In this document: positions 14,645-54,755 of the stretch, piece after piece
Position numbering within the stretch: the stretch's first letter is position 1
Layout: the number at the start of each line of letters is the position of its first letter
Assembly: GCA_016186635.1 (NCBI GenBank)
Contig: JACPLI010000014.1
Span: forward strand, 804-64,803
Source: Candidatus Liptonbacteria bacterium
GTDB lineage: Bacteria > Patescibacteriota > Minisyncoccia > UBA6257 > 2-01-FULL-56-20
Length of the DNA: 64,000 nucleotides
Direction of reading: 5' to 3'
Translations under genes and position numbers: made by a program
The notes under the pieces: model-generated
The model's input: only the letters and a program-made list of their open reading frames with translations
The model's database searches: none
What the model was told of the DNA's origin: nothing

Positions 14645-14770
14645 CAAGTGGCAAGTGGCAAGTAGTATGTAGCGAGTAGTATGGAGCAGGGAATAAGAAA
14701 AGTAAACGCGAATAAGCAAAAAAACCGCTTCGCTTCGCTATTCGCTACTTGCTACCCGCTACTTGCTCAC
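14645..14770. repeat. inverted pair of heptamer arrays (GCAAGTG)n ... (CTACTTGC)n forming a long hairpin
   Basis: gcaagtggcaagtggcaagtagtatgtagcgagtag ... ctacttgctacccgctacttgctcac; between glyA stop and folD start. Confidence 0.6.
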
Positions 14771-23030: not shown

Positions 23031-23145
23031 AACTCGTTGTACGTTTTCGGTTTCGCCGCCCGTATCGCTTCACGTTGACGTCTTACATATGCCCACACCG
23101 ATACGGGCTACGACACCGTCACCGCTCAACACCAAGTAAAATAAG

Positions 23146-23210
23146 TGGGCCAGGAAGGACTCGAACCTTCGATCCTCTTGGTATAAGCAAGATGCTTTAG
23201 CCGCTAAGTC
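23146..23210 (-). pseudogene. tRNA-like fragment (anticodon arm with loop CTTATAC, T-arm, acceptor 3' strand) lacking matching 5' half
   Basis: minus strand ...GCA-TCTTG-CTTATAC-CAAGA-GGATC-GAAGG-TTCGAGT-CCTTC-CTGGCCC-A; complementary GGGCCAG occurs only ~520 nt upstream (approx 23663-23669). Confidence 0.4.
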
Positions 23211-23256
23211 CCGACGCTCCGGTCGGGACCCCGACCCTGCAAGGCGTCGGGGCTAC
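23197..23256. repeat. double-hairpin element R copy 1 (CCCCGAC..GTCGGGG / TCCCGACC-GGAGC-GTCGGGA / CTTAGCGGCtAAAGCA)
   Basis: near-identical unit at 23591-23660; related hairpin at 28706-28740. Confidence 0.6.
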
Positions 23257-23258
23257 TG

Positions 23259-23329
23259 TGGGCGCACTAGGAATCGGACCTAGGTCGGGCGTGTATAAGA
23301 CGCCTGCTTTGCCATTAAGCTATGCGCCC
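23259..23329 (-). tRNA. tRNA-Ile with rare anticodon TAT (UAU)
   Basis: GGGCGCA-TA-GCTT-AATGGCA-AAGC-A-GGCGT-CTTATAC-ACGCC-CGAC-CTAGG-TCCGATT-CCTAG-TGCGCCC-A; unusual T-loop TCCGATT. Confidence 0.75.
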
Positions 23330-23687: not shown

Positions 23688-24275
23688 CTACTGCTTCACT
23701 ATCGCGTCAAACCGGTCCATTGCCTGCCCGGCTTGGCCGTTGAACGTGTTGATTGCCTGCACTTCCGCGTTAATCTGGTTCACGAGCACCGCTACCTGCT
23801 TCGCCGAGCCGGGGACTCCCTTGAAACGCCCCTCGAGCGCCTGCAGGAGCTCGCTCAAGTAGTTGCTGTAGCTGATAAGCTTGTTTAAAAGCGCCAAGCG
23901 GCTCGCGATGGACTCAAGCGCCGCCTGCCGCGCCTCGAAGGACTGAATGCCGGAGAGCGCCTTCGTCATCGCGCCGATTTCGTCTGCGAGCGCCACCGCC
24001 TGGTTGCGAATCGCCTCACTCTGCTTCGTGGCATCGAGTGTAATGGCAAGCGCCTCGGAGAACTTCCCCTTCTTGTCGAGCTCGCTGATTTTCTCGATGC
24101 TCGTTCGGGAATCGTTCGAAAGGTTCACAATGTTTTGGGAGATGAGCGCTCCCCGAAGGCGGGCGTCTTGGAACTCCGAAGGGATTCCTTGCGAGAAGGA
24201 AAAGAGCCGGCTCGCGCCGTAGCCGGCGGCCACAATTACCACAAACGCAAGGAATAATTTGGTGCGGCGGGACAT
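23688..24275 (-). CDS. hypothetical membrane-anchored coiled-coil protein
   Basis: start at internal ATG 24275 (MSRRTKLFLAFVVIVAAGYGAS = TM anchor); remainder Ala/Gln/Leu-rich helical; track N-terminal extension overlaps tRNA-Gly. Confidence 0.45.
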   Translation of the reverse strand: MSRRTKLFLAFVVIVAAGYGASRLFSFSQGIPSEFQDARLRGALISQNIVNLSNDSRTSIEKISELDKKGKFSEALAITLDATKQSEAIRNQAVALADEIGAMTKALSGIQSFEARQAALESIASRLALLNKLISYSNYLSELLQALEGRFKGVPGSAKQVAVLVNQINAEVQAINTFNGQAGQAMDRFDAIVKQ

Positions 24276-24369
24276 GCGTTCTTCTCCTTTGTAGCGCATC
24301 TTGGGGAAATAATCAACGGGTCTTGAGTAAGCGGTAGGGAGTAGGTAGTATGTGGTAGGGAAAACCGAA

Positions 24370-24443
24370 GCGGGCGTAGTATAGTGGCAGTACGGAATCC
24401 TTCCAAGATTCAGGTACGGGTCCGATTCCCGTCGCCCGCTCCA
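24370..24443 (+). tRNA. tRNA-Gly (anticodon TCC), CCA encoded
   Basis: GCGGGCG-TA-GTAT-AGTGGCA-GTAC-G-GAATC-CTTCCAA-GATTC-AGGT-ACGGG-TCCGATT-CCCGT-CGCCCGC-T-CCA; coordinates shifted +1 to agree with ORF track. Confidence 0.85.
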
Positions 24444-24448
24444 CACCA

Positions 24449-25660
24449 CTATTTCACCTTCGCCCGGAAAAAGTGGCGCTTGCCGACTCTGATTGTCTCG
24501 CCGCCGGAAAAAGAAGGCGCCATATGCGGGTCTTTGAGCGCCGCGCCCTCGACATGCACGCCTCCCTGCGCAATGAGCCGCCGCGCCTCGCTTTTACTTT
24601 TCACGACGCCGGTTTTCAGCACCACGTCAAGGAGAGGCAACTTCCCCACTTCCAGATAGGGAATATCCGCATTGTTCACGTCTCTCTCCGAAAAAATTTT
24701 TTTCCAGTCCTTTCGGGCTTTTTCTGCATTTTTCTCACTACAGTATGTCTTTACAACCTCAAAGGCCAAGGCAAGCTTTGCGTCTCGAGGATTATCAAAC
24801 TCTTTAAGCTTCCTAATCTCATCAAGTGGCATAGACGTTGACAATTCTGCAACTCCAGAAATCATCCCATCCGGCATAGCCATCACTCGCCCGAACATTT
24901 CACCCGGGCTATCGTCAAGATTCACTAAACTTGCCTCAGTTTTACTCAATTTTTTCCCAGTATTGGAATCCACGAGCAATTTCACCGCAACAAAGAAATT
25001 ATCCTTCCACACTTGGTCTCGAAAAGCGCGGCCGACATTCATATTAAATATCTGGTCACGACCACCAATTTCTACATTCACTCCAAGTTCTCTACCGTCC
25101 CATCCCTGCAAAAGGGGGTAAATAAATTCTCTTAGTTCTATAGATTTATGTTCTTCTAATCTCTTCTTAAAATCAGCTCGCTCTAACAAATTCTGAACAG
25201 AAAAAGCACCAAGTAGGGATTTGAAAAAATCTTCGAACTTCATCTTTCCAAACCACTCCGAGTTATATCTTACTTGTGCAGCATTCTCGCCTGAAAAATT
25301 CAGAATGCGAGATACCTGCTTCTTGAAAGTCTTCCAGTTCTCTTTAATCTGTTTTGGCGTGAGGGGTTGCCGCGGCGCCATCTTATCCGTCGGGTCTCCA
25401 ACCCGAGCAGTAAAATCTCCGATAAGCAGAATCGCTTTATGGCCAAGATCCTGAAATCTACGAAGGGTCCATAAGCCCGCCGCATGGCCAAGGTGAAGAT
25501 GCGAGCTAGTGGGATCGATACCGAAGTAGAAAGACAGCCGCCGACCGCTTAACAACTCTTTCTCAAACGCTTCAACGGATGGGTACACCATACTGAGCGA
25601 TCGCGTAAGAGCCTCTCTAACAAGCCTTTTGTCTTTCTTCGCCCCCATTTCTTTCTCCAT
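24449..25660 (-). CDS. tyrS: tyrosine--tRNA ligase
   Basis: GIDPTSSHLHLGH (HIGH region), KLSKT (KMSKS), C-terminal S4-like domain; start placed at ATG 25660. Confidence 0.9.
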   Translation of the reverse strand: MEKEMGAKKDKRLVREALTRSLSMVYPSVEAFEKELLSGRRLSFYFGIDPTSSHLHLGHAAGLWTLRRFQDLGHKAILLIGDFTARVGDPTDKMAPRQPLTPKQIKENWKTFKKQVSRILNFSGENAAQVRYNSEWFGKMKFEDFFKSLLGAFSVQNLLERADFKKRLEEHKSIELREFIYPLLQGWDGRELGVNVEIGGRDQIFNMNVGRAFRDQVWKDNFFVAVKLLVDSNTGKKLSKTEASLVNLDDSPGEMFGRVMAMPDGMISGVAELSTSMPLDEIRKLKEFDNPRDAKLALAFEVVKTYCSEKNAEKARKDWKKIFSERDVNNADIPYLEVGKLPLLDVVLKTGVVKSKSEARRLIAQGGVHVEGAALKDPHMAPSFSGGETIRVGKRHFFRAKVK

Positions 25661-28705: not shown

Positions 28706-28800
28706 CCCGACGCTTCGGTCGGGGCTCCGACTCCCGCCGCAACGGGACGCCGGAGCTAATAACTTATGACTTATGACAAATGACCTTTCTCACTCTCACT
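28706..28800. repeat. hairpin ccccgacgcttcggtcgggg plus heptamer arrays (CTTATGA, CTCACTC, CTCTTAC)
   Basis: between hppA start and nusA stop; nusA C-terminal tail [14 protein letters not shown] is encoded by the arrays. Confidence 0.5.
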
Positions 28801-30012
28801 CTTACTCTTACTTTCATCCCCATGCTCATTTGTATTCTCGCTTTCGGTTTCGACAACGCCCGCCACTCCTCCTTCCTGAGATTCCTCGGGGCGCGTCTGC
28901 GAGCGCACGTCGAGTTTCCACCCGGTGAGCTTCGCCGCGAGCCGCACGTTCTGCCCGCCCTTGCCGATTGCCAAACTCAACTGGTCCTCGGGCACATAGA
29001 CGCGCGCCTCGCGCCGCGGCAAAACCTCAACCTTCTCCGCCTTCGCCGGAGAGAGCGCATTCCCCACAAACGTTCCCGAATCCTCCGACCACTCAATGAT
29101 GTCCACCTTCTCGGGACCAAGCTCGTTCGTCACCGCCATCACCCGCGTGCCGCGCTGACCCACAAGCGCCCCTACCGGGTCCACTCCCTCTGCCTTCGAC
29201 GCAACTGCAACCTTCGTGCGGTTCCCCGCCTCACGCGCAATCGCCTTTACCTCAACCACCCCTTCCGCGAGTTCGGGCACCTCGAGTTCAAAAAGCTTCG
29301 CAACAAATTTCGGGTGTGAGCGGGAGAGCACAATGCCGGGCAAGCGCGTGTCTTCCTGCACCGCGAGCACGAGGAACCGGAGCCGCTCCCCGGAGCGGTA
29401 GTGCTCTCCCGGAATGGACTCATTTGCGAACATCACTCCCACCGTCCGCCCCAAGTCCACATACACGTGCCCGCGCTCGAACCGCTGGACGATGCCGCTC
29501 ACAATCTGCCCTTCCTTATCCCGCCACTCGGAGAGGATGGAGTCACGCTCCGACTCCCGGAGTTTCTGCAAAATGATTTGCTTCGCGGTCTGCGCCGCGA
29601 TGCGGCTGAAGTCCTCGTGCGTCTCAAGCGGGAACAGCATTTCGTCGCCGAGTTTCGCGTTCGGCTTCACTTTTTTTGCTTCGTCTAAAAATACGTGGCG
29701 CTCGGGATTATAGCGCGGCAACACGGTTATCCCCTCTTCGCCCTGCGGCGCAGCCTCCGGCGGCGCCTCTTCCGTCCCCTCTTCCACAATGCGCACGGTG
29801 GATTCATCCACCACGGTTTTCACATGCCAAAAACGCAGCTCTCCTGATTTTGAATCGAGCTTCGCGCGCACCACATCACCCCGCGCCCCATACTCTTTTT
29901 TGTATGCGGCAGCAATGGAAGATTCGATTGCCTCAAGCACACGCTCGGGCTGAAGCCCTTTCTCCTCCGCAACTTGCTTGAGCGCGCGGGATATATCTTT
30001 GATATTCAGCAT
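28771..30012 (-). CDS. nusA: transcription termination/antitermination factor NusA
   Basis: N-terminal domain, S1 and KH domains (e.g. [32 protein letters not shown]). Confidence 0.9.
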
Positions 30013-30230: not shown

Positions 30231-30593
30231 CTAGCACACATTCTCATAGTGGCGGATGTCCTCTCCCCCGTCATCCAGGAGCGTAATCGCCACGAGGTCA
30301 ATGCGCCAACCCCTTTTGTCGCGGAAAAGCTCGGCGTGCTCGTTCGCGAATAGTGAGCACGTTCTCCTCATCTTTGCAATCTTCGCCCGCGACATTTGGT
30401 CTTCCGGCTGGAGCCGCCCCTCCCGCATCGTCTTTACCTCCACAAACACAAGTGTCCCGTTGGGACTCTTTGCCACAATATCCAGTTCCCCCCATGGCTT
30501 GCGATAGTTTCTCTCCAAAACCCGATAGCCCTTTTTAGAAAGGGATTTGCAGGCGATTTCTTCGCCGAGTTTCCCGATTTCACTCTTTTCCAT
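30231..30593 (-). CDS. yraN: YraN/UPF0102 family endonuclease
   Basis: GKLGEEIACKSLSKKGYRVLERNYRKPWGELDIVAKSPNGTLVFVEVKTMREG matches UPF0102 motif. Confidence 0.75.
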   Translation of the reverse strand: MEKSEIGKLGEEIACKSLSKKGYRVLERNYRKPWGELDIVAKSPNGTLVFVEVKTMREGRLQPEDQMSRAKIAKMRRTCSLFANEHAELFRDKRGWRIDLVAITLLDDGGEDIRHYENVC

Positions 30594-30630
30594 TACATTG
30601 TGTGCACGCGTTAAACATTATATGATTTAT

Positions 30631-31071
30631 ATGAATCGTAAAGCGATAAACATGGAATTATCCTACGAATACATACGCGGTGTGGTTGAAGGAGAAGGAT
30701 GTTTTACATTCTCAAAGTCAAACGGGAGAAAAATTCCTGCTTTTGCAATAAGAATGCACATTCGAGACAAGAGCTTGATATGTGCAATACGAGATACTCT
30801 TGGATTAAGAAATAAGGTTTATGTCTATGATTATCAAGCAAAGGACAGGATAGAAAGAGCACCACAGGCAACGCTGATAGTAAGAGAATTTGGTCAACTC
30901 AAAAACATAATAGTTCCATTCTTTTACAAAAGGTTAAGGGGGAACAAACGAAATCAGTTTGAACTGTGGTTAGAGAAGATAGGTAACGATCCAAGCGTAC
31001 CAGAGAGTTTTAAATTCATATACAAGATTTACAAAGCAGGGTTCTATGATAAGAATCCAAAGTTTCCATAG
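30631..31071 (+). CDS. LAGLIDADG-family homing endonuclease (single-motif, free-standing)
   Basis: YIRGVVEGEGCFTF is a LAGLIDADG motif variant; ~147 aa; sits in AT-rich islet 30594-31290; start could also be ATG 30622 or 30652. Confidence 0.65.
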   Translation: MNRKAINMELSYEYIRGVVEGEGCFTFSKSNGRKIPAFAIRMHIRDKSLICAIRDTLGLRNKVYVYDYQAKDRIERAPQATLIVREFGQLKNIIVPFFYKRLRGNKRNQFELWLEKIGNDPSVPESFKFIYKIYKAGFYDKNPKFP

Positions 31072-33453: not shown

Positions 33454-34481
33454 TATTTGGCGAACGGGTTCACCGCTCCCAATACTTCAAAGTGCGCGTG
33501 GCACCCCGCCGCATCTCCCGTATCGCCCATCCTGCCGATTTCCTGCCCTTGTTTTACATACTCGCCCACATCCACCGACGCGGATTTAAGGTGCGCGTAG
33601 CGTGTCCGGACGTTGGCGCCCGCGGGGTGCTCGATCAGTACAAATGTCCCGTAGCCGCCGTTCCATCCGCCGCTCCCCTCGCCGTATTGCGCATCGGGCA
33701 CCGCAAGCCCCTCCGCCGCCGCGACGACTGGCGTGCCGCACACGCCCGCGATGTCCACTGCGTTCACCGGGTGGAGATTCCCGAGATTAAATCCGGACGC
33801 CGGCATCATAAAGTATCCCTTGAGCGCGGGAAGCGGCTTTCCATTTTCCCTCACGCGCGCGGCGAGCACGCCGGGGATAATGGGCCGGGCTCCCGGACCG
33901 AGCATCGCCACATTCACAGAGCGGTTTGCGTCCGCGATGTCCTTCGCCGCGACGCCGAACGCGTCCGCAACCGATTCAAGCGTTTCCCCTTCTTTGGTAA
34001 AGTAAACCGTCCCTGATACCGGGGGAATCTGAAGCGCCATCCCCACCGCAAGCCGGTTTGCCTTGACGTCCGGATTCGCCCGAAGCACGGTTTCGAGCGA
34101 TACCCCGAACTTTGCCGCAATCCCCGAAAACGTGTCGCCGCGTGCCACCTTATAGGTGGCAAATTCGGTGCGCGGCGAGAAACCCGGGGCGCTCCCGAAG
34201 GCACTAAGCGCGGCGAGGCGCACTCCCTGTGCCGCAGCGCGCTCGCCCGCCCGGTGCGCCGGAGACATGCCAAGCCGCGGGCGGCTCGCCATCGCCACGC
34301 TCACCGATTGAGCGCCCCGCGCGTGTAGCGCCGGCCCCCCCCACACCCCTTTCGCAAGAACCCGTGGGAGCTCTCCCGAAGAGTCAAGAATTCCCGCAGT
34401 GGCAAGTGCAACAAGCAACAAAACCGCGGCCACAAAAGGCGTGCGCTCCTCATGAAGCGATAGAATCATACTAATATTCAT
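33453..34481 (-). CDS. LysM-domain M23-family peptidase
   Basis: signal/TM, LysM YKVARGDTFSGIAAKFGVSLETVLRANP, M23 motifs GGYGTFVLIEHPAGANVRTRYAHL and HAHFEV. Confidence 0.8.
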   Translation of the reverse strand: MNISMILSLHEERTPFVAAVLLLVALATAGILDSSGELPRVLAKGVWGGPALHARGAQSVSVAMASRPRLGMSPAHRAGERAAAQGVRLAALSAFGSAPGFSPRTEFATYKVARGDTFSGIAAKFGVSLETVLRANPDVKANRLAVGMALQIPPVSGTVYFTKEGETLESVADAFGVAAKDIADANRSVNVAMLGPGARPIIPGVLAARVRENGKPLPALKGYFMMPASGFNLGNLHPVNAVDIAGVCGTPVVAAAEGLAVPDAQYGEGSGGWNGGYGTFVLIEHPAGANVRTRYAHLKSASVDVGEYVKQGQEIGRMGDTGDAAGCHAHFEVLGAVNPFAK

Positions 34482-34522
34482 AGTATACTCCCGAACGCGG
34501 AGTTTTCAACTCCTCTTGCATC

Positions 34523-36388
34523 ATGGACGCTCCTCTGAACCCGGAACAGCAGAAAGCCGCTTCCGCCCCGCACGGACCCCTCCTCATTGTTGCAGGGGCA
34601 GGCACCGGCAAGACGAAGACGCTCACGAGCCGGCTCCTCCGCCTCATAGAGGAAGGAGTTGTCCCGTCTTGCATCTGTGCGCTCACGTTTACGAACAAGG
34701 CGGCGAAGGAAATGGCGAACCGCGTCGCGACGATGACGAATGACCATAACGATGACGGCGGTCATAGTCATCGTCATAGTCATCGTATGAACGACCTGCC
34801 CTTCATCGGCACATTCCACTCGCTCGGGGCAAAAGTTCTCCGCGCTGAAGCGCGTGCAGTGGGGCGAACGCAGGGTTTCACCATCTTCGACGACGGCGAC
34901 TCGCTCTCCGCAATGAAGAAAGTTATGAAAGAACTTGACTTCCGCACGGGCAAACCCGCACAGGCGCTCCGCTACATTTCGTGGAAAAAAAGCGGGGCGG
35001 GAGAAGGCGTGGATGCCGGCACGCGTGACGACAAAAAGATATTTGAGCGTTACGAGGCATTCCTCGCCCGCGCAAACGCATTCGACTTCGATGACCTCAT
35101 CGCAAAGACAGTTGCGCTCTTCGAGCACAGCCCCGAGACGCTCGCGCGATATCAGAAGCGTTATACGCACATCCTCGTTGACGAATACCAAGACGTGAGC
35201 CCCGCGCAATACACGCTCGTGCGGCTCCTCGCGGGACGGCGCGCCCACGTGAGCGTCGTAGGAGACGACGCGCAGATGATTTACGGGTGGCGCTACGCAA
35301 ATCTCGACACGTTCCTTCACTTTGAGCGCGACTGGCCCGGCGCCCGCGTCGTGCTCCTCGAAGAAAACTACCGCTCTACCGCAATAATCGTCCGCGCCGC
35401 CTCTGCCGTCGCCGCGCAGAATGCGTTCGCCCGCAAAAAAGAACTCTGGACGCGGAATCCCGACGGAGAGCTCCTCACTATTGCCGAAACCGCGGACGAG
35501 GACGATGAAGCGGAGTGGGTGGGCGCGCAAATTGCGCGCACTATGACAGATGACGATCACCATGACGCCGGTTATCGTCATAGTCATGGTCATGGTCACG
35601 CCGGCAACTCCGTTGCCGTGCTCTACCGCACGAACGCCCAGTCGCGCGCGCTCGAGCAGGCGCTCCTCCGCCGCAACATTACGTACAAAATTTATGGAGG
35701 TCTGAAGTTCTACGAACGCCGCGAAATAAAAGACATCGTGGCGGGACTTCGTCTTGCGATAAACCCTCGAGACGAAATGAGCCGCGACCGCTTAGAAAAG
35801 GCCTTCCGGGTACGCGTGTTTGAAAACGTCGTGGCTACACTCACGAAGTGCGGTGGAACTTCCCCGCGCGCAGCAATCGAGAAGTTTCTTGCCGCTACGG
35901 ACTATTTTGAACATCTCGAGCGCGAAACCACGAACGCGGAAGAGCGCCGGGAAAACATCACCGAACTCCTCCGTTTTGCGGAGGGCTTCACCAACCTTGC
36001 TGATTTTCTCGAGCACGTTTCCCTTGTGCAGTCCACCGATGATGTGAACGCGAATTGCCAATTGCCAATTGCCAATTGCCAACCAGTGGTACATCTCTCC
36101 ACCATCCACCTCGCCAAGGGGCTTGAGTTCGACCGGGTGTTCCTCGCGGGATGTGCGGAAGGGCTCCTCCCGCACGCCCGCTCCATAGAAACGGAAGATG
36201 CAACAGAAGAAGAACGGCGGCTTATGTATGTGGGGATGACGCGCGCGCGGAAGAAGCTCTCGATTTCATTCTTCGGGATTCCCTCGAGGTTCCTTGGAGA
36301 AATCCCGGAAGATCTCATGGCGTACGAGAAAACCTCCGGCGCGGCCGATGATGAAAATAGTGAGGGGGCAGCGATTCAACTCAACTAG
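34523..36388 (+). CDS. UvrD/PcrA-family ATP-dependent DNA helicase
   Basis: Walker A GAGTGKT, motifs ILVDEYQD, VGDDAQMIYGWR, TIHLAKGLEFD, VGMTRAR; carries three in-frame heptamer-array inserts. Confidence 0.9.
   Translation: MDAPLNPEQQKAASAPHGPLLIVAGAGTGKTKTLTSRLLRLIEEGVVPSCICALTFTNKAAKEMANRVATMTNDHNDDGGHSHRHSHRMNDLPFIGTFHSLGAKVLRAEARAVGRTQGFTIFDDGDSLSAMKKVMKELDFRTGKPAQALRYISWKKSGAGEGVDAGTRDDKKIFERYEAFLARANAFDFDDLIAKTVALFEHSPETLARYQKRYTHILVDEYQDVSPAQYTLVRLLAGRRAHVSVVGDDAQMIYGWRYANLDTFLHFERDWPGARVVLLEENYRSTAIIVRAASAVAAQNAFARKKELWTRNPDGELLTIAETADEDDEAEWVGAQIARTMTDDDHHDAGYRHSHGHGHAGNSVAVLYRTNAQSRALEQALLRRNITYKIYGGLKFYERREIKDIVAGLRLAINPRDEMSRDRLEKAFRVRVFENVVATLTKCGGTSPRAAIEKFLAATDYFEHLERETTNAEERRENITELLRFAEGFTNLADFLEHVSLVQSTDDVNANCQLPIANCQPVVHLSTIHLAKGLEFDRVFLAGCAEGLLPHARSIETEDATEEERRLMYVGMTRARKKLSISFFGIPSRFLGEIPEDLMAYEKTSGAADDENSEGAAIQLN
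34761..34789. repeat. heptamer array (GTCATAG/TCATCGT)x4 in frame in helicase
   Basis: gtcatagtcatcgtcatagtcatcgtatg encodes GHSHRHSHRM; antisense gives spurious MTMTMT ORF. Confidence 0.8.
35571..35599. repeat. heptamer array in frame in helicase
   Basis: gttatcgtcatagtcatggtcatggtcac encodes YRHSHGHGH. Confidence 0.8.
36053..36075. repeat. heptamer array (AATTGCC)x3 in frame in helicase
   Basis: aattgccaattgccaattgccaa encodes NCQLPIANCQ immediately before conserved TIHLAKGLEFD. Confidence 0.8.
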
Positions 36389-37662: not shown

Positions 37663-38502
37663 ATGCCAGGAGCAAGATTAGGCCAGCACTTCCTCCGTGA
37701 CCAAGGCGCCCTCCGCGCGGTTGCGGCGGCGCTCGAGCTCGCGCCGGGCGACACCATTATCGAAATCGGCGCGGGGCATGGGGAGCTCACGGAAGAGTTG
37801 ATGAGTGAAAAGTGGAAAGTGAAGAGTGGAGAAAAAATACAAGTTCTTGCCATAGAAAAAGATTCGCGGCTTGCAAGAACGCTTCGAGAAAAATACTCGC
37901 GAAGCAGGAACATTGAAATAGTCGAGGGCGATGTGCGAACCGTATTGCCCTCCTTACTCACCACTTCTCACTCATCACTCGCCACTCGCCACTCGCCACT
38001 CGTTTACAAGCTCTGCGGCAACATCCCCTACTACCTCACTGGGTTTCTCTTCCGCATCGTGAGCGAACTTGAGCCGCTCCCCGCGCGGGCGGTGTTCACC
38101 ATTCAGAAAGAAGTTGCGGAGCGAATTGATGCAAAACCGCCGCACATGAATCAGCTTGCGGCGAGCGTGCAGTTCTGGGCGGAGCCGAAAATAATCCGCG
38201 TGGTTCCTCGGAGCGCGTTCTCACCGGCGCCAAAAGTGGACTCGGCGATTCTATTACTCAACCCTGTCATAAAAAAGGGAGAAAGAGGAGAAAAGGGGGA
38301 AAGGGGGAAATACTATGCGGCGGTCCATGCGCTCTTCTCCCAACCCCGCAAGACCATTCTGAACAACGTGGCGGCGGCGCTCCACGTGCCGAAAGAAGAA
38401 GCCGCACACACGCTTCATGAAGCGGGGATAGCTCCTCTCGCCCGCGCGCAGAACCTTTCTGTTGCAGATATCAAAAAGATATCCTCGCTTTTCCCGCTTT
38501 GA
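37663..38502 (+). CDS. rsmA: 16S rRNA (adenine1518/1519-N6)-dimethyltransferase
   Basis: GQHFLRD, SAM motif IIEIGAGHGELT, GNIPYY; contains three low-complexity in-frame inserts (37797-37835, 37952-38002, 38275-38315). Confidence 0.85.
   Translation: MPGARLGQHFLRDQGALRAVAAALELAPGDTIIEIGAGHGELTEELMSEKWKVKSGEKIQVLAIEKDSRLARTLREKYSRSRNIEIVEGDVRTVLPSLLTTSHSSLATRHSPLVYKLCGNIPYYLTGFLFRIVSELEPLPARAVFTIQKEVAERIDAKPPHMNQLAASVQFWAEPKIIRVVPRSAFSPAPKVDSAILLLNPVIKKGERGEKGERGKYYAAVHALFSQPRKTILNNVAAALHVPKEEAAHTLHEAGIAPLARAQNLSVADIKKISSLFPL
37952..38002. repeat. heptamer array (CTCAYCA/CTCGCCA)x7 in frame within rsmA
   Basis: ccttactcaccacttctcactcatcactcgccactcgccactcgccactcg encodes SLLTTSHSSLATRHSPL between conserved EGDV and KLCGNIPYY. 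Confidence 0.8.
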
Positions 38503-44122: not shown

Positions 44123-45544
44123 ATGAACAACCCAACCGTAATACCCGAAGAAAAAATCTTCCAGCGCTGGGATATGCTCCCCGAGGGACTCCGCGAGGCG
44201 CTTGTCTCTGAAAAATACGGCGATATTCTCTGGAAAACCTGCGCGGCGGAGCATCTCTCCGAGGAAAAAACGGGCGAGGTCGCCCGCATCGCTTCGTGGG
44301 TGTTTCTGGGATTCCTCCACCCCGAGGACATCGCGCGCGAGGTGCAGCTTTCGACCGGCATCCACGCCGAGGTTGCAAACGCGATTGCCGCGGCGCTCCA
44401 CGCGAAGATTTTCGCGCCGCTCCGCGAGACGCTCGAGTCCTCCTACGCCCCTCCGGGAACCACGCCCCGCTACGGCGAGGCGCCTGCGGGGCCCGTCATG
44501 CTTGAGGATATTCGCTCCATGGAAGACCGCGAGGGCGCGCCTGCTTCGCCGGAGCTCCCGCGAGGCGCGCAGGGCGCTTCTCTCTCTCACGGGATGGAAG
44601 CAACGCTCGAGAAGCTCCGCCCCTCCGCCGCAGAAGAGCCATTCTTCAAAGAAACGCCCGTAGCGCTTGAGGCGCTTAAGGAACAAGGAACAAGGAACAA
44701 GGAACAAGGAGAAGCCTTTGAAGTACCACCAGCATTCGAGATGCCGCCTCCCGAAAGAATGAGTGATGCGGGAAGAGTGATAAGTGATGAAGCGACCCGT
44801 CCCTCACCCCTCACCACTCAAAACTCATTCTCGCCACTCGCCACTCAACCCTCGCCACTTGAAACTTCCCCCTTCATCCTCCACGAAGAAGCCCCCGCGC
44901 CTTCGCTCCCGAACGTCGGCGACTTTTCGCTCGACATCAGGCCGGAAGAGTTCGGCCCCTCGGAGCAGGAACTGCAGAAAGCCCCGCAGGCGGACATCGA
45001 GATAGGGGGAGCAACAGAAGGAATAAGGAATAAGGAACAAGGAACAAGCGAGGAAGAAAAGGAATCGAGAATCGTTCACTACGGAGACTTGCGCACGCCG
45101 CTCGAAAGCGTGAGTGGCGAGGGAAAAGTGATGAGTGATGAGGCAACTCTCCTCTCACCCCTCACCCCTCAACACTCATCACTAGATGCAACTCCCGTTC
45201 CAAGCCCGACGTTTGCAGCGTTCAACCTCTCCGACCTTGCAGGGCTGGATGCTCCGCCTCCTCCACCTCCCGCCGCAACCGCGCCCGAGCCGGACGTGCC
45301 CCCGCCTCCGCCCGCCACTCAACCCTCGCCACTCGAAACTTCTCCAAAAAAGCAAGGGTTCTTTGCGCGGCTTTTCGGAAGAAGAGGAAGGGGGACTCTA
45401 GAACCTTCGGATGCCCAAGGTTCGACCTTGGAAGCAACCCCGGAACCCGACCTGCCTCCGCCTCCGCCCGATGAGCCACCCGTGCCGCCTCTACCCCCTG
45501 CTACCGGCGCCGACACGATAAACTTAGATTCTTTCAAGTCCTGA
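44123..45544 (+). CDS. hypothetical protein with folded N-domain and Pro-rich low-complexity tail
   Basis: 473 aa; tail contains AAGGAAC and GTGATGA-type heptamer arrays translated as EQGTRNKEQG, SDEATRPSPLTTQ etc. Confidence 0.45.
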   Translation: MNNPTVIPEEKIFQRWDMLPEGLREALVSEKYGDILWKTCAAEHLSEEKTGEVARIASWVFLGFLHPEDIAREVQLSTGIHAEVANAIAAALHAKIFAPLRETLESSYAPPGTTPRYGEAPAGPVMLEDIRSMEDREGAPASPELPRGAQGASLSHGMEATLEKLRPSAAEEPFFKETPVALEALKEQGTRNKEQGEAFEVPPAFEMPPPERMSDAGRVISDEATRPSPLTTQNSFSPLATQPSPLETSPFILHEEAPAPSLPNVGDFSLDIRPEEFGPSEQELQKAPQADIEIGGATEGIRNKEQGTSEEEKESRIVHYGDLRTPLESVSGEGKVMSDEATLLSPLTPQHSSLDATPVPSPTFAAFNLSDLAGLDAPPPPPPAATAPEPDVPPPPPATQPSPLETSPKKQGFFARLFGRRGRGTLEPSDAQGSTLEATPEPDLPPPPPDEPPVPPLPPATGADTINLDSFKS

Positions 45545-45556
45545 CTCGGAAAACCT

Positions 45557-45602
45557 TAATTCGCGTTATTTGCCCCAATTCGCATTATTCGCGATTACTC
45601 CT
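45557..45602. repeat. palindromic AATAAYGCRAAT-family element, copy 4
   Basis: taattcgcgttatttgccccaattcgcattattcgcgattactcc ending 1 nt before ATG 45603. Confidence 0.65.
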
Positions 45603-46109
45603 ATGCAATTCCAAGTTCCCCAATTTATCGAGACGGAAGACAAGATTGTGGGGCCTTTCACGCTCAAGCAGTTTATCGCGGTCGGCGCCGCAGTAGGCGT
45701 CTCGCTTGTCCTGTACCTCGTCGTCGTGCCGTGGCTCTGGCTCGTGCTCTCTATTCCCCTCGTCGGCGGCGGGATTGCCTTCGCCTTCGTGAGGGTAGGG
45801 GGGCGCGCGCTCCCTTCGGTCGCGCTCGCGGCGCTCCGCTATCTCTGGAAACCGCAAACGTACGTGTGGCAGCCGGAAGCGCAAGGAACAAGGGACAAGG
45901 AACAAGGAACGAAAACGGAAGAAAAGACGGGCGGGCTTTCGCTTGAGGAAGTGCTCTCGGGACTCTCCCTGCGGCGGACATGGCAGAAGCTCCAAACCGG
46001 CGCGGAGAAGCTCTCGCCGGGGCTCTTCCTCGCTCAGCGCGACCGCTACTCCATCTACCGGAAGCGGAGCGGGGAGAGGAGCGCCGCGAGGAGGATAGAT
46101 TACCGCTAG
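45603..46109 (+). CDS. PrgI/VirB3-like small membrane protein
   Basis: start at ATG 45603; two TM helices FIAVGAAVGVSLVLYLVVVPWLWLVLSIPLVGGGIAFAFV; position directly upstream of VirB4-like ATPase as in Gram-positive-type T4SS. Confidence 0.5.
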   Translation: MQFQVPQFIETEDKIVGPFTLKQFIAVGAAVGVSLVLYLVVVPWLWLVLSIPLVGGGIAFAFVRVGGRALPSVALAALRYLWKPQTYVWQPEAQGTRDKEQGTKTEEKTGGLSLEEVLSGLSLRRTWQKLQTGAEKLSPGLFLAQRDRYSIYRKRSGERSAARRIDYR

Positions 46110-46112
46110 AGG

Positions 46113-46168
46113 ACAAGTGGTGAGTGATGAGTGGTGAGTGGGGAGTGGTTAAGTGGCGAGTGATGAGG
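46113..46168. repeat. heptamer array (GTGGTGA/GTGATGA/GTGGGGA...)x8
   Basis: ggacaagtggtgagtgatgagtggtgagtggggagtggttaagtggcgagtgatgagg. Confidence 0.8.
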
Positions 46169-46582
46169 GAATACAATGCAATGCAAATCAAATCGTATAA
46201 AGAACTTACTGTTTGGAAAAAATCGGTTGTTCTTGTGGAAGAAGTTTACTGTTGCACCGCAAAACTTCCGAAGGAGGAGTTATATGGTCTCGTTATGCAA
46301 GCGCGCCGCGCAGTAGTTTCAATCCCGTCAAGCATCGCCGAAGGTTCGAGAAGGAAAAACGGCATGGAATATCTGCAGTACATAAGGATTGCGGATGGAT
46401 CATCGGCAGAACTTGAGACACAACTCATCATAATAAAACGCCTCTACCCTCACGTAAATGTCGCGAGAGCAGAACAGCTGCTTGATGAAGTGCAACGAAT
46501 GCTGCACGCAATGCGGCGGACTCTCGAATCTAAAATCAGGCTTACCCGAACACCTCCAAGCGAGTACAATGATAAAGAATAG
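46163..46582 (+). CDS. four-helix-bundle protein (23S rRNA intervening-sequence protein family)
   Basis: KSYKELTVWKKSVVLVEEVY...LPKEELYGLVMQARRAVVSIPSSIAEGSRR...ADGSSAELETQL matches PF05635-type proteins; lower-GC islet; start 46163 or 46181. Confidence 0.65.
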   Translation: MREYNAMQIKSYKELTVWKKSVVLVEEVYCCTAKLPKEELYGLVMQARRAVVSIPSSIAEGSRRKNGMEYLQYIRIADGSSAELETQLIIIKRLYPHVNVARAEQLLDEVQRMLHAMRRTLESKIRLTRTPPSEYNDKE

Positions 46583-46652
46583 CCACCACTTCCCTCACCC
46601 CTCACCACTTATCGCTCATCACTTATCACTCGCCACTTATCACTCAAAACTC
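46582..46652. repeat. heptamer array (CCTCACC/ACTTATC/ACTCGCC...)x10 abutting virB4-like start codon
   Basis: ccaccacttccctcacccctcaccacttatcgctcatcacttatcactcgccacttatcactcaaaactc then ATG 46653. Confidence 0.8.
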
Positions 46653-49079
46653 ATGCCCAAAGAATTCGCCAACGCCCAGGACCTCGTCGCGGTCAAGGAA
46701 ATCCGAGACGGGACGCTCATCTTGAAGGACGGCGGCCTCCGCCAGATACTTATGGTGAGCGGCGTGAACTTCGCGCTCCGCTCGGAGACGGAGCAAGGCA
46801 TCATCACCGCCAGCTACCAGAACTTTTTGAACACGCTCGATTTCCCCCTGCAGCTCATCATCCACTCCCGGAAAATCAACATTGATACATATCTCGAGAA
46901 GCTCGCCGCGTACGAGCAGAAAGAGCCCTCCCCCCTCCTCCGCAACCAAAACGCCGAGTACCGCGAGTTCATCAAGGGGTTCGTGGACAAAAACGCGATT
47001 ATGGAGAAAACATTCTTCGTGGTCGTGCCGTGGACGACCGTCTCACTCCCCACCACGAGGAGTCTTATGCGATTCATCCCGTTTCTCGGGAGAAGCAAGG
47101 GGGCGGAAGCGGCAGAGGCGAAAGAGAAGGAAGAGTCCTTCGAGGAGTCGCTGGAACAGCTCCAGCAGCGCGTCTCCCAGGTCGCCGAGGGGCTTGCCGC
47201 CGTGGGGCTTGAAGCGGTCCCTCTGGGCGACCGCGAGCTTGCGGAGATGCTCTACAACTTCTACAACCCCGAATCCGTCGAGCGCGAAAACCTTGCGCTT
47301 CCCGCCGACGAGAAAGGCGGGGCGAATGCAACGGCCCAAACCCAAGGCGCGGAGAAACCCGTGAAGAAGGGCGGAATTGGCGATGTCTCAAAAATCATTG
47401 CGCCGGCAGGCGCGGAGGTGACGCCGAATTTCGTCAAAATCGGCAGCAAGCTCGCAAAAACGTTTTTCGCGCTCTCCTACCCGAGGTACCTTGCAACCGG
47501 CTGGTTTGAGCCCATCGTGAACCTCCCCAGCCTTCTCGACGTCTCCATCTTCGTGAATCCCATGAACACGGGGGATGCCCTCAAAAACCTCCGCAAGAAA
47601 GCCGCCCAGCTCGAATCGCAAATCGCGGATACGGAAGAGAAAGGGCTCGTGCGCGACCCCCTGCTCGAAACCGCGCTCCGCGACGTGGAATCCCTTCGGG
47701 ACACGCTCCAGCAATCGGAGGAAAAGCTCTTCCACGCCGCCCTCTACATCACGATTTACGCGGACGCGCCGGACCAGCTTGCGCGGCTTGAGGGGCAAAT
47801 CACTTCGCTCATGGAAGCGAAGCTTGTTTACATCAAACCCGCCCTCTTCGAGCAGCTTGAGGGGCTCCTCTCGGTTTTTCCCTTCGGAGGCGACCGCCTC
47901 AATATCGGGACGCCGATGAACTCGAGCCCCATCTCCTCTTTTTTCCCATTCGTCTCCGAAGACCTCACCTCGAACGAGGGCATCATGTACGGCATCAACC
48001 GCCACAACAATAGCTTGGTCATATTCGACCGGTTTTCTCTCGAGAACGCAAATCAGGTCGTCTTTGCAAAATCCGGCTCCGGAAAATCCTACTCCACGAA
48101 ACTCGAAATCATCCGTTCGCTCATGGTGGGCGCCGAAGTCATCGTGATTGACCCCGAGAACGAATACCAGCGCCTCGCGGAGGCTTTGGGCGGGAGCTTC
48201 TTCAGCATTTCGCTCTCGTCCGAAGAGCACATCAACCCGTTCGACATCCCCATCATTCCGGAAGGGGAGTCTCCTTCGGACATCCTCCGGTCGCACGTCG
48301 TGAACCTCGCGAGCTTGGTGAAGCTCATGCTCGGGAAAATCACGCCCGAGGAAGACGCGCTCCTCGACCGCGCGATTACCGAAACCTACGCCTCGCGCGA
48401 AATCGTGGCGGGGGAAGATTTTTCCGGCAAGGAAGCCCCGCTCCTTGAGGACCTCGAAACCGTGCTCCGCAACCTTGAGGGCGGGCGCGCGATGGCGGAA
48501 CGGCTCTATAAGTACACGAAGGGGTCCTTCGCGGGATTCGTAAACCAGCACACGAATATCGACATCGGCAACCGCTTCATCGTCTTCTCCATCCGCGACC
48601 TTGAGGAGGAGCTCCGCCCGATTGCGATGTTCGTCATCCTGAACTTCATCTGGAACCTCATCCGCGCGAAGTTGAAACGCCGGATTCTCATGATTGACGA
48701 AGCATGGATTATGATGAAAAACGAAGACTCCGCCACGTTCCTCTTTGGGCTCGTGAAGCGCGCCCGGAAGTACTACCTTGGCGTTTCCACCATCACGCAG
48801 GACGTCGAGGACTTCCTGAGGTCTCCCTACGGCAGGCCCATCATCACGAATTCCTCGGTACAGCTCCTTTTGAAACAAGCGCCTGCGACGATTGATATCG
48901 TGGCAAAAGCGTTTGACCTCACGGAAGCCGAAAAATCGCTTCTCTTGGGCGCGGAGGTCGGCACGGGGCTCTTCTTCGCGGGGAAAAAGCACGTCGCCAT
49001 CCAGATTGTCGCCTCGTATTTCGAGGACCAGATTGTAACGACAAACCCCGCACAGCTCCTTGAGGAAAAATCCCGCTAG
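46653..49079 (+). CDS. VirB4/TrbE/PrgJ-family T4SS ATPase
   Basis: start at ATG 46653 (MPKEFANAQDLVAVKEIRDGTLILKDGG = typical Gram-positive-type VirB4 N-terminus); Walker A FAKSGSGKSYS; Walker B LMIDEAW; C-terminal VirB4 domain. Confidence 0.85.
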   Translation: MPKEFANAQDLVAVKEIRDGTLILKDGGLRQILMVSGVNFALRSETEQGIITASYQNFLNTLDFPLQLIIHSRKINIDTYLEKLAAYEQKEPSPLLRNQNAEYREFIKGFVDKNAIMEKTFFVVVPWTTVSLPTTRSLMRFIPFLGRSKGAEAAEAKEKEESFEESLEQLQQRVSQVAEGLAAVGLEAVPLGDRELAEMLYNFYNPESVERENLALPADEKGGANATAQTQGAEKPVKKGGIGDVSKIIAPAGAEVTPNFVKIGSKLAKTFFALSYPRYLATGWFEPIVNLPSLLDVSIFVNPMNTGDALKNLRKKAAQLESQIADTEEKGLVRDPLLETALRDVESLRDTLQQSEEKLFHAALYITIYADAPDQLARLEGQITSLMEAKLVYIKPALFEQLEGLLSVFPFGGDRLNIGTPMNSSPISSFFPFVSEDLTSNEGIMYGINRHNNSLVIFDRFSLENANQVVFAKSGSGKSYSTKLEIIRSLMVGAEVIVIDPENEYQRLAEALGGSFFSISLSSEEHINPFDIPIIPEGESPSDILRSHVVNLASLVKLMLGKITPEEDALLDRAITETYASREIVAGEDFSGKEAPLLEDLETVLRNLEGGRAMAERLYKYTKGSFAGFVNQHTNIDIGNRFIVFSIRDLEEELRPIAMFVILNFIWNLIRAKLKRRILMIDEAWIMMKNEDSATFLFGLVKRARKYYLGVSTITQDVEDFLRSPYGRPIITNSSVQLLLKQAPATIDIVAKAFDLTEAEKSLLLGAEVGTGLFFAGKKHVAIQIVASYFEDQIVTTNPAQLLEEKSR

Positions 49080-49085
49080 AGCCCT

Positions 49086-49153
49086 GTCATTCCCGCGTAT
49101 GCGGGAATCCAGGAAAGTGAGATAAGGTTCTGGGTTCCCGCTTCCGCGGGAAC
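49086..49153. repeat. ~70-bp double-hairpin element, left copy (GTCATTCCCGCGtatGCGGGAATC ... GGTTCCCGCTTCCGCGGGAAC)
   Basis: direct repeat of 49903-49968 (about 85% identical); the pair brackets gene 49189-49854. Confidence 0.7.
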
Positions 49154-49188
49154 AACAGAAAGAATACATTCGACCCCTGCACACTACC

Positions 49189-49854
49189 ATGGAACCCGAG
49201 CCAAAAATCTCCGTCGTTGAGGCGATATGGATAGGAACCGTATTCGCGCTCATAGACATTGCGGAAGTCGCCATTGTATTCTTCGGGCTCGACGATTTCT
49301 GGATTCTCGACGCGCTCGCGTCAACGATATTTGTGTATCTCGTCCTCAAGACAATCCCGCCGTTCCGCCAGCTCATCACATGGATTGGAGAACTCTTCCC
49401 GTATGTGGGCGCGCTCCCGCTCCTCACCGCAGGATGGCTCTGGACCACGTGGGCAGACTGGCATCCCGAGGGACTCGGCGCGAAGACGCTCGCCGTGGCG
49501 GAAACGGCGGCGTCCGCGGCAAAGGGAGGAGGGGGAGGAAAAGGCGCCGCGGAAGGCGGGGGAGGGGGCACAGCGGGCGCGCCCGCGCAGGCGCCGCAGG
49601 CACGCGCCGCCGAACAAGCCCCAGCCGGCGCGGGAACAACCGCAGAATCCGCTCCGGCATCCGCCGCGCCGGGCGGAGCGCCGGGAGCGCAACCGGTTCC
49701 CGATGAGGCGCTTGGGGTTCAAAAAGAGCCGATGGAAAAGGTACGGGAGCTCATGGAAAAACCGCTCCCGCCGGAAGAACCCGTCTCCTCAACCGAACCG
49801 CCAGCGCCCCCTCCTCCGAAACTTGAGGATGTGCGCCGGAGGGAAATGCTCTAG
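49189..49854 (+). CDS. hypothetical membrane protein with Gly/Ala/Pro-rich tail
   Basis: 221 aa; 3 TM helices; KGGGGGKGAAEGGGGGTAG low complexity; flanked by direct repeats. Confidence 0.45.
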   Translation: MEPEPKISVVEAIWIGTVFALIDIAEVAIVFFGLDDFWILDALASTIFVYLVLKTIPPFRQLITWIGELFPYVGALPLLTAGWLWTTWADWHPEGLGAKTLAVAETAASAAKGGGGGKGAAEGGGGGTAGAPAQAPQARAAEQAPAGAGTTAESAPASAAPGGAPGAQPVPDEALGVQKEPMEKVRELMEKPLPPEEPVSSTEPPAPPPPKLEDVRRREML

Positions 49855-49867
49855 AATGAAGGAGGAT

Positions 49868-54387: not shown

Positions 54388-54416
54388 TGGGATATTATAG
54401 TGGGGAGTGATAAGTG

Positions 54417-54755
54417 TTACGTGATACGGGATGCCTGCACTGCCGCATCGCGAGCGCGGTCAAGTTCCGCACGCAACTCTCCCGAAGAAAGGCGCGCCGC
54501 GGGGCGTGCGAGGATAACCACAAAGTCCGAGGAAAGGGAAGAGGGCCATGCGCGCATCGCCGCACACACCACGCGCTTCAGCCGATGGCGCACCACGGAA
54601 CGCGCATCTACCGCGGCGCCTGCCACTACCCCGAATCTGTTATGCCCCGCCTTGTTCGCCTGTGCTTTGAGAGTAACGGCGGGAGAAACATAGAGCGCGC
54701 GCACGCGCACCCTCAAGAGTTCGGCTACAGGCGCCCGAAACCGCCGAGCAAGCAT
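54417..54755 (-). CDS. rnpA: ribonuclease P protein component
   Basis: 112 aa basic protein with RNR-like motif region HRLKR...; located between rpmH and yidC as in most bacteria. Confidence 0.8.
   Translation of the reverse strand: MLARRFRAPVAELLRVRVRALYVSPAVTLKAQANKAGHNRFGVVAGAAVDARSVVRHRLKRVVCAAMRAWPSSLSSDFVVILARPAARLSSGELRAELDRARDAAVQASRIT

Follow-up and report, generated by a model that had tools for sequence, protein, structure and literature searches.

Tandem repeats with a unit length not divisible by three are commonly expected to be absent from coding sequence. How, then, does an array of heptamers come to lie in frame inside a helicase? The question is raised by a 64-kb stretch of DNA (57% G+C; hereafter the window) from an uncultured, groundwater-type member of Candidatus Liptonbacteria (Patescibacteria, candidate phyla radiation (CPR)), in which the gene for a UvrD/PcrA helicase carries short tandem repeats at three sites and those for GyrA, FolD and RsmA/KsgA carry others (Table 1). 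An initial annotation read these segments as heptamer arrays inserted, in multiples of 21 or 28 nucleotides (nt), within conserved enzymes, and proposed either selection on length or a mechanism that inserts 21-nt quanta. The segments are indeed present, at or near the places first assigned to them, and are translated in frame into the peptides first read; Pfam confirms the four hosts. As to their origin, we tentatively favour a different account: genome-wide dispersed tandem-repeat blocks of ~30 nt, made by slippage, probably copied by short-patch template switching and kept by selection in tolerant loops.

Within the helicase, sites 1 and 2 are not heptameric: the segments first taken for heptamer arrays (34761–34789 and 35571–35599) have period 6/12 (GTCATN) and are the 3′ arms of two imperfect hairpin elements with (ATGACN)n as 5′ arms, translated as TMTNDHNDDGGHSHRHSHR (element 1; DNA fold z = −2.5) and TMTDDDHHDAGYRHSHGHGH (element 2; z = −2.4). 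Site 3 is a heptamer array, translated as NCQLPIANCQ, and on its own has no significant fold (z = −0.35). The helicase motifs are invariant in the alignment of UvrD orthologues and the arrays sit between them, in loops of variable length; site 1 falls between what we take to be motif Ia and the TFHS motif of superfamily 1 helicases, as positioned by alignment with PcrA. Relative to Geobacillus PcrA (1PJR), sites 1 and 2 are each longer by 13 residues and site 3 merely by three, and all three are among the low-confidence segments of a moderate AlphaFold model (mean predicted local distance difference test score 66.5). The repeats also generate, as a by-product, the ‘MTMTMT’ open reading frame (ORF) at 34478–35599, which was already judged spurious by the annotation and runs antisense to the Pfam-supported uvrD.

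The excess of period 7 is nonetheless real in the window. Our own scan found 13 period-7 tandem arrays, against none to two at each of periods 5, 6, 8 and 9; Tandem Repeats Finder (TRF) returns ~28 rows of period 7, and the pattern (CACTCNN)3 has 35 matches where 0.06 are expected. Two further segments described as heptamers proved to be otherwise, with TRF giving period 8 for the third, purine-rich rsmA segment (38274–38310) and period 6 for the NusA tail. The repeats of this genome group into the families (CACTCNN)n, (AAGGAAC)n, (ATGACN)n/(NGTCAT)n, AATTGCC and AATTTTC, the first of which is a superfamily present at ~12 loci, among them gyrA and its 5′ leader, folD, both rsmA loops, a conserved hypothetical ORF (44123–45544), the PrgI–VirB4 spacer and one site near the replication origin. 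When rotations and reverse complements are pooled, the 28 period-7 arrays reduce to 17 unit classes; the units are reused in 18 coincident pairs, compared with 0.55 expected and with none of 20,000 simulations reaching as high.

Are these repeats peculiar to one genome? We compared the window with the syntenic loci of 15 related genomes (labelled L001–L261), and its proteins with the 120 best UvrD homologues and 110 GyrA orthologues; the UvrD of the window forms a singleton cluster (P0001), and strain-level variation was therefore read from other UvrD clusters. Both the UvrD and the GyrA of the window match, residue for residue, proteins of an NCBI metagenome-assembled genome named Candidatus Liptonbacteria. 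Arrays occupy uvrD sites 1–3, rsmA loops 1 and 2, the gyrA loop and the PrgI site in many of the 15 loci, with differing units: (GCGACAA)x4, (AAGAGTC)x4 and (ATCAGTC)x4 in uvrD, (AAGGAAC)x4, (CTCAAAG)x4 and GGTCTCY in rsmA, and related but different units at the PrgI site in L017 and L001. Since the same loops are occupied across relatives, the phenomenon is clade-wide and not a quirk of the window genome. Period 7 is dominant in the window and six related loci, and three related loci (L002, L007 and L008) have no arrays. In L005 (DATLTV010000021.1, 6400–13520) the octamers ACGAGCTT and ATTGCCGG stand in place of heptamers in the same protein loops, inverted partners included, which indicates that the preferred period is lineage-specific. 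The footprint is also visible in protein: among the 120 UvrD homologues, peptide repeats at a spacing of seven residues number 52, against 13–31 at other spacings, and are concentrated at the second and third helicase sites, some also falling at the first (~10 of the 52 are conserved helicase motifs and not footprints). The segments are, as first suggested, lineage-specific stretches between conserved motifs that are encoded by repeat DNA, with the amendment that relatives hold other arrays in the same loops. At site 1 of the L259 uvrD (1483–3606) we observed another long palindrome, built of CGAATNN/NNATTCG heptamers and translated in frame, with a predicted RNA fold of about −59 kcal/mol.

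The arrays have a characteristic size. Among perfect period-7 arrays in 334 kb of clade sequence, 32 span 16–21 nt and none 22–25 nt; beyond this gap lie two arrays of 26 nt, one each of 27 and 28 nt, seven of 30 nt and one each of 32 and 33 nt, so that 30 nt is the commonest long span (7 of the 13 arrays of at least 26 nt). The two long octamer arrays measure 31 nt and the hexamer arms 26–29 nt. Neither the multiples of 21 or 28 nt nor the 21-nt quantum of the initial annotation survive this count: the uvrD array is 30 nt long, that of gyrA 31 nt and those of rsmA 35–47 nt, the mode is exactly 30 nt, and the recurrent size is ~30 nt whether units have 6, 7 or 8 nt. A block of 30 nt amounts to ten codons, and neither adding it nor exchanging it for existing sequence disturbs the frame. 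In a metagenome scan for (AAGGAAC)x3, made as a control (120 contigs from many unrelated organisms, GC 0.32–0.65), array lengths tailed off gradually; the distribution had no peak at 30 nt, and coding arrays did not differ cleanly from non-coding ones.

Frame is preserved in a second respect. Because a heptamer unit is not a multiple of three, an array is read in all three phases, and every heptamer unit within a coding sequence (CDS) lacks stop codons in all three on the coding strand; several intergenic units contain them. The ideal unit of RsmA loop 1, GAGTGAA, would give an in-frame TGA, and the rsmA array switches to AAGTGGA at that phase. Selection on the reading frame evidently acts on the coding arrays, and in the account that we favour the frame would be preserved by this filter together with the ten-codon block size, not by a mechanism that inserts 21 nt.

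Could slippage alone have built the arrays where they stand? They would then be local simple-sequence repeats, extended in place from a pre-existing heptamer and selected for in-frame (+21 nt), stop-free arrays, with no copying between loci; we regard this as possible, if doubtful. Heptamers are the commonest long simple repeats of prokaryotes, and polymerase slippage has been proposed as their source (Mrazek 2007, as related in PMC4679880). One UvrD cluster contains a single HG (6 nt) difference in a (GH)n tract (P0020 versus P0124 and P0125, otherwise identical), the units in CDSs are free of stops, and the lack of 22–25-nt spans together with the 30-nt peak fits a 9-nt seed plus three units. 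Slippage in place does not account for a reuse of units so far above chance, and least of all for one identical 30-mer, AGCGACAAGCGACAAGCGACAAGCGACAAG, which has the same boundaries at three loci in two genomes: the gyrA loop of L261, uvrD site 1 of L001 (the record of its UvrD, P0004, names the 84,562-bp contig on which the L261 gyrA lies) and uvrD site 3 of L017, the second genome. In viral contigs, taken as a control, arrays of this unit span 22–75 nt and have other boundaries. The 31-nt octamer arrays also misfit a seed unit plus three units, which would require at least 32 nt, and the essential gyrA would need a single-step event of +21 nt.

GyrA illustrates the turnover. The array is part of a 23-residue insert specific to the window (residues 614–636), in a loop of ~8 residues in E. 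coli and in most of the 110 orthologues; the insert is missing from the 83%-identical P0151, where the same loop holds (AGCGACA)x4+AG. A second window-specific GyrA insert, the Gly/Ser-rich SASARGGPASGGKGTSGSASGG (residues 671–692, ~4535–4600), is likewise missing from most of the 110 orthologues, and no tandem repeat was detected in it. Several Patescibacteria GyrA proteins (P0207, P0212, P0225, P0229, P0237, P0241 and others) reach 1120–1290 residues and contain intein/homing-endonuclease domains (PF14890, PF14528); the GyrA of the window has neither.

Whether such segments are inserted at all differs from site to site. Added length is clear at helicase sites 1 and 2, in FolD (net +5 residues relative to FolD 6V6Y) and in the first two RsmA segments (+8 and +6), so that the original wording holds there; it does not in the third RsmA segment (0 residues) or at helicase site 3, with its small gain and with a 30-nt slot that in L001 is filled by non-repeat sequence of equal length. 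In L017 this slot holds (AGCGACA)x4+AG, beginning at the same nucleotide. The rsmA loop 2 arrays of L003 and L005 fill a loop of 11 residues that has 10 in relatives without arrays. ‘Overwriting’ fits these cases (uvrD site 3; rsmA loop 2 of L003 and L005) better than ‘insertion’, and slippage in place is at odds with several arrays that replace loop sequence at no gain in length. A ‘breathing’ model, in which loops alternate between 9 and 30 nt by 21-nt steps, was ruled out, because the loop lengths of relatives do not differ by seven residues.

Many arrays are halves of inverted pairs. A reverse-complement partner lies within 600 nt of ~17 of 44 arrays at p ≤ 0.03 (most at p ≤ 0.01; unit-shuffle null), and direct partners are rare by the same measure, a bias that slippage in place does not predict. 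Hairpins with tandem-repeat arms occur at six places in the window: 5′ of gyrA (inverted partner p < 0.005; DNA fold z = −4.1), between glyA and folD (p < 0.005; z = −2.7), upstream of ruvC, across the start of pilB and at helicase sites 1 and 2, with DNA fold z-scores from −2.4 to −4.6. The two RsmA loops form such a pair over a longer distance: loop 2 has its inverted partner (p < 0.005; match of 28 nt) in loop 1, ~150 nt upstream and separated from it by ~120 nt of conserved coding sequence. Such a reverse-complement relation between a 28–31-nt tract of loop 1 and one of loop 2 is found in five genomes, each with a unit of its own. Inverted alignment scores are 13–24 within genomes, as against 6.4 ± 2.3 across genomes and 4–13 for the same-orientation control, and predicted duplexes range from −29 to −43 kcal/mol in four of the five genomes (−40 kcal/mol in the window) versus −15.5 ± 7 across genomes. 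Arm positions move by up to 12 nt between genomes, and one inverted tract, in L006, runs on into non-repeat flank. Units reused across loci and arrays that are halves of inverted pairs leave little room for the simple one-off insertions first envisaged.

The hexameric hairpins show that the DNA dictates the peptide. The GTCAT 3′ arm of site 1 is identical at 26 of 26 nt between the window and L014, although protein identity is 70% and synonymous sites on either side have changed. This arm, GGT CAT AGT CAT CGT CAT AGT CAT CGT, is written in rare codons (GGT 7%, CAT 28%, AGT 7% and CGT 6% of their codon families in this genome), and hence it is the DNA sequence that sets the peptide. The GTCAT pattern has eight matches in the window (0.04 expected), each of which lies either in uvrD or in the region preceding ruvC; ATGAC/GTCAT hairpins recur at UvrD site 1, 2 or 3 in at least six genomes, down to 51% protein identity, and their peptide signature is found in 9 of the 120 UvrD homologues. 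A protein search with a 48-residue concatenate of the hairpin peptide returned no candidate host proteins beyond UvrD. The initial annotation had reasoned that the same peptide in orthologues of unrelated lineages would mark the segments as ordinary sequence. In part orthologues do share it, as MT(N/D)D...GHSHRH at helicase site 1, 2 or 3 and at 51–70% identity, because they share a DNA hairpin family in rare codons; ordinary conserved protein sequence it is not.

Such conservation raises the question of function. The hairpins with ~30-nt arms might be conserved RNA or DNA structures, or protein-binding arrays, whose arms co-evolve under selection and which regulate the genes that they precede (gyrA, folD, ruvC, pilB) or occupy (uvrD, rsmA). 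Consistent with this are the complementarity of RsmA loops 1 and 2, kept in five genomes with different units; the identity of the GTCAT arm in proteins that have diverged to 70%; the presence of the ATGAC/GTCAT hairpin both in uvrD of at least six genomes and upstream of ruvC, two DNA-repair genes; the fold z-scores; and the fact that several hairpins abut start codons. Against it, in every comparison made for the uvrD and rsmA hairpins (window, L014 and L017), predicted folds are more stable on the antisense strand than on the mRNA strand, because the arm mismatches are A–C on the sense strand, and this argues against selection on mRNA structure. The rsmA arms also shift in position, many unrelated units are used within one genome, many arrays have no partner, three related loci do without any arrays, and Rfam finds no family in the window other than tRNAs. 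We therefore consider a functional role for the hairpins quite unlikely.

The same palindromes might instead be miniature mobile elements, moved by a transposase in trans and tolerated in frame. They are palindromic and multi-copy, have the shared termini ACGATGAC...GTCATCGT (in the window, in L014 at the 3′ end and in L258), occupy different sites of uvrD in different lineages and lengthen the protein relative to PcrA. A precedent exists in Rickettsia palindromic elements (RPEs), which lie in frame in unrelated metabolic and housekeeping genes, add a peptide and are compatible with folding (PMC10969869), and which, like the ATGAC/GTCAT hairpins (three in the window, more in relatives), occur in several dispersed copies. 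RPEs, however, measure ~150 bp, have no short tandem units and encode a conserved peptide, whereas the hairpin elements measure 55–75 nt and the repeats as a whole 30–75 nt, with units of 6–8 nt and often no added length. No target-site duplication is visible at the element flanks, and no transposase, RAYT-type or Y1 (HUH-type) domain was found among the ~40 window ORFs scanned with Pfam. The features of miniature inverted-repeat transposable elements (discrete insertion with target-site duplication, 100–400 bp, a transposase) are thus not those of the elements here, which are 30–125 nt long, and neither are those of repetitive extragenic palindromes or bacterial interspersed mosaic elements with their REP-associated tyrosine transposase (RAYT), which are intergenic imperfect palindromes of 20–40 nt: many copies here are genic, and the scan of the window found no Y1 transposase. 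A single insertion cannot produce the rsmA arms, split as they are by conserved coding sequence, and members of the hairpin family were seen only in uvrD and ahead of ruvC, not scattered. Mobility of this kind is, in our judgement, improbable.

Strain-level comparison bears on two further accounts. Gain and loss of 7-nt units could in principle switch genes off and on, since phase variation classically acts on repeats with non-triplet units, with heptamer cases described for Haemophilus influenzae and E. coli neuO. Such switching usually affects surface or antigen genes. The hosts here are, however, housekeeping genes, the essential gyrA among them; the arrays are found in loops in the middle of the gene and are all in frame, and nine near-identical UvrD clusters contain neither frameshifts nor repeat-number variants; contingency loci are thus a highly improbable description. 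Hardly credible is an assembly artefact through collapsed or chimeric repeats. All sequences are metagenomic and a fixed length of 30 nt could suggest collapse, but the arrays are shorter than reads and than the usual final assembler k-mers, they recur in assemblies made independently by different groups, the reading frames are uninterrupted and the loops have the lengths seen in orthologues. The P0002 uvrD gene is identical in three assemblies, which itself makes artefact unlikely and again shows no variation of the kind that phase switching would bring.

Ranked by the weight that we give them, local slippage stands ahead of functional hairpins, followed by mobile elements, phase variation and artefact. 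Also considered were a G-quadruplex origin (there are no G tracts), DNA-uptake sequences (there are too many different units), and restriction-site effects and relatives of DnaA boxes, for which we found no support. In the reading that we tentatively prefer, dispersed ~30-nt blocks, replication slippage on heptamers would first make arrays. Short-patch copying, most likely by polymerase template switching over ~30 nt, would then carry them to near or distant sites in either orientation, overwriting existing sequence and creating inverted pairs, that is, hairpins. Selection would finally keep genic copies only in loops that tolerate any sequence, where the change in length is a multiple of three and the array is stop-free in three phases on the coding strand; the blocks themselves would have no function. 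Template switching can create and maintain hairpins (PMC8794818): a single replication event leaves a reverse-complement copy of a nearby tract, making or repairing a long perfect stem with no change in length (Monttinen and Loytynoja 2022), which fits the ~30-nt inverted tracts. It was described for RNA genes and for sequence in general, whereas the present case concerns tandem-repeat arms and protein-coding loops.

Several observations weigh against this preference. The GTCAT arm is kept across species at 51–70% protein identity, more than neutral copying predicts, and ATGAC/GTCAT hairpins were seen only within uvrD and ahead of ruvC, a hint of function. Nine other UvrD clusters (at least 90% identity) have no internal or repeat-number indels, implying that turnover is slow on the strain scale. 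Only a single perfect 30-mer is clearly intergenic (6615–6644), so that mechanism and selection are inseparable for the 30-nt mode, which could alternatively stem from the 9-nt seed (a single unit with 2 nt of microhomology) if it grew by three units while selection acted on frame. Nor does the scheme account for a unit length of 7 nt. A bolder version, in which the ~30-nt blocks would be an undescribed self-propagating micro-element or a form of templated overwriting in Patescibacteria, writing ten-codon blocks into loops and keeping ~30-bp stems (rsmA, uvrD) that covary between species, strikes us as unlikely; were the stems to covary in this way, they would point to lineage-specific machinery that recognizes them, or to a regulatory RNA or DNA structure.

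Table 1. Repeat arrays, hairpins and host genes of the window (positions are those of the 64-kb stretch).
Feature	Position	Strand	Description
GyrA CDS	4037–6610	−	Pfam
GyrA C-terminal-domain loop	4696–4760	−	(ACTCATC)x4 on coding strand (4696–4726, 31 nt) beside decayed GCAAGRR array
Hairpin directly 5′ of gyrA start codon	6615–6678		Arm 1 (GATGAGT)x4+GA, 30 nt, perfect; arm 2 degenerate CTCACCA/CTTGCCA/CTCCTCA
FolD CDS	13770–14654	−	Pfam
FolD loop before TPxPGG motif	13911–13950	−	Degenerate CACTCGC/CACTCAT heptamer array, translated as SSSLATRHSSLATIS
Long hairpin, glyA–folD intercistronic	14643–14767		Arms of GCAAGTG-type and GCTACTT-type heptamers
NusA C-terminal tail	28788–28816	−	Period-6 array TCTCAC/TCTTAC; outside region aligned in relatives
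UvrD/PcrA helicase CDS	34523–36388	+	621 aa; Pfam PF00580, PF13361; contains both hairpin elements and the heptamer array below
Hairpin element 1 (helicase site 1)	34729–34786	+	5′ arm (ATGACN)n ACGATGACGAATGACCATAACGATGAC, loop GGCG, 3′ arm GTCATAGTCATCGTCATAGTCATCGT (period 6/12)
Hairpin element 2 (helicase site 2, directly before motif IV)	35540–35599	+	ATGAC-type and GTCAT-type arms; TRF period 6
Heptamer array (helicase site 3, directly before motif V)	36053–36082	+	(AATTGCC)x4+AA, 30 nt; TRF 4.3 copies, 100% matches
RsmA/KsgA CDS	37663–38502	+	Pfam
RsmA loop 1	37797–37835	+	GAGTGAA/AAGTGGA heptamer arm, translated as MSEKWKVKSGEK
RsmA loop 2	37955–38002	+	CACTCGC/CACTCAT heptamer arm, translated as TTSHSSLATRHSPL; pairs in inverted orientation with loop 1
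Repeat-rich middle of conserved hypothetical ORF 44123–45544	44678–45334	+	(AAGGAAC)n at 44678 and 45018
CACTC/CCCTC-type arrays of ORF 44123–45544	44761–44860, 45112–45184, 45316–45334		Both orientations
Array in PrgI-family gene	45882–45910	+	(CAAGGAA)x4; TRF, Pfam
Inverted pair, CACTC family	46115–46652		GAGTG-type 46115–46169 (intergenic); CACTC/CACTTAT-type 46592–46652 (5′ end of VirB4/TraG-like ORF); p < 0.005
yidC	53650–54387	−	
dnaA	55243–56604	+	
dnaN	56740–57849	+	
Third ATGAC/GTCAT hairpin, directly upstream of ruvC (60662–61141, −)	61134–61210		Fold z = −3.1
Hairpin across start of pilB-like ATPase gene (61841–63580)	61748–61849		30-nt arms (AATTTTC)n and (TTGAAAA)n; 42-nt loop; z = −4.6

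Other features surround these genes. The repeat-laden hypothetical ORF at 44123–45544, which has orthologues in L001, L002, L004 and L017 and at least six arrays in both orientations, opens a cluster resembling those for type IV secretion or conjugation (44123–52988), followed by PrgI, a VirB4/TraG-like ATPase and a type IV secretion system pilin; the cluster is syntenic in all relatives. Within it, the array at 46592–46652 has a 14-nt super-period (CACTTATCACTCGC), CACTTAT alternating with CACTCGC, and lies within the first 65 codons of the VirB4/TraG-like ORF (start uncertain); in L258–L260 a separate TraC-like gene precedes the ATPase. The cumulative GC skew reaches its minimum at ~53–54 kb, close to dnaA, dnaN and yidC, which together place the replication origin near 54–55 kb. 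The yidC–dnaA spacer contains a CACTC-family array (54398–54416) and a weak period-7 repeat (54407–54432). A perfect 21-nt tandem repeat, (CGGGCGGTGGAACACCTCCAG)x5 at 2290–2394, inside an ORF without Pfam match (2259–3101), is a true in-frame repeat with a seven-codon unit and differs in kind from the heptamer arrays. A free-standing LAGLIDADG endonuclease ORF (30547–31071) keeps its syntenic position in L014, L017 and L260 and on that account looks domesticated, not mobile. Two neighbouring genes (23145–23329) are both called tRNA-Ile (anticodon TAT), one at only 38 bits in Rfam, and the ORF at 23688–24449 overlaps tRNA-Gly (24370–24443), its 5′ part being probably spurious.

How do these repeats compare with systems already described? 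Like long simple sequence repeats (LSSRs), they consist of head-to-tail units of 1–11 nt that are more frequent than chance, and like the heptanucleotide LSSRs of Xanthomonas and Nostoc (GGGNATC) or Beggiatoaceae (TAACTGA) they show an excess at 7 nt and many loci per genome; such repeats, too, frequently lie directly upstream of start codons (PMC4679880). LSSRs are, however, mostly intergenic and scarce in coding regions, with one unit per studied case and a proposed G-quadruplex or binding-site role, whereas the arrays described here use many units, lie to a large extent in frame in housekeeping enzymes, form hairpin arms and have 8-nt units in one related lineage. The short tandemly repeated repetitive (STRR) heptamers of cyanobacteria (CCCCAGT, TTGGTCA, CAACAGT) are dispersed tandem arrays with several unit families per genome and are described as intergenic. 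Those of Candidatus Liptonbacteria (CACTCNN, AAGGAAC, AATTGCC) belong to another phylum, have other units and do not fall within the STRRs; our searches found no report of STRRs occupying enzyme loops in frame. PMC4692102, in which STRRs are mentioned, reports that GGGNATC arrays of Xanthomonas and Nostoc favour four units. The amino-acid tandem repeats of Borgs come closest in position: tandem DNA repeats arise recently and independently in ORFs, form disordered segments and share their position between homologues (PMC9879509). Borg units within ORFs are always divisible by three; here they have 7 or 8 nt and ~4 copies, with a peptide period of seven residues, and only the hexamer arrays comply. 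Literature searches returned nothing on such arrays in CPR/Patescibacteria. None of these systems, nor the RPEs or template-switch hairpins, joins the four features seen here, namely non-triplet units in frame in housekeeping enzymes, a block of ~30 nt, hairpin pairing and loop-specific turnover within a clade.

Non-triplet repeats thus occupy the loops of essential enzymes across a CPR clade, where they give rise to lineage-specific peptides dictated by DNA down to the choice of rare codons. For those who work with such genomes, the arrays generate spurious antisense ORFs and inflate the apparent divergence in marker-gene alignments (gyrA), and they could serve as strain or lineage markers. 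Should copying lie behind the ~30-nt size, the shared units and the inverted partners, it would offer genomes with a small repair repertoire a simple route to remodel protein surfaces and to create hairpins.

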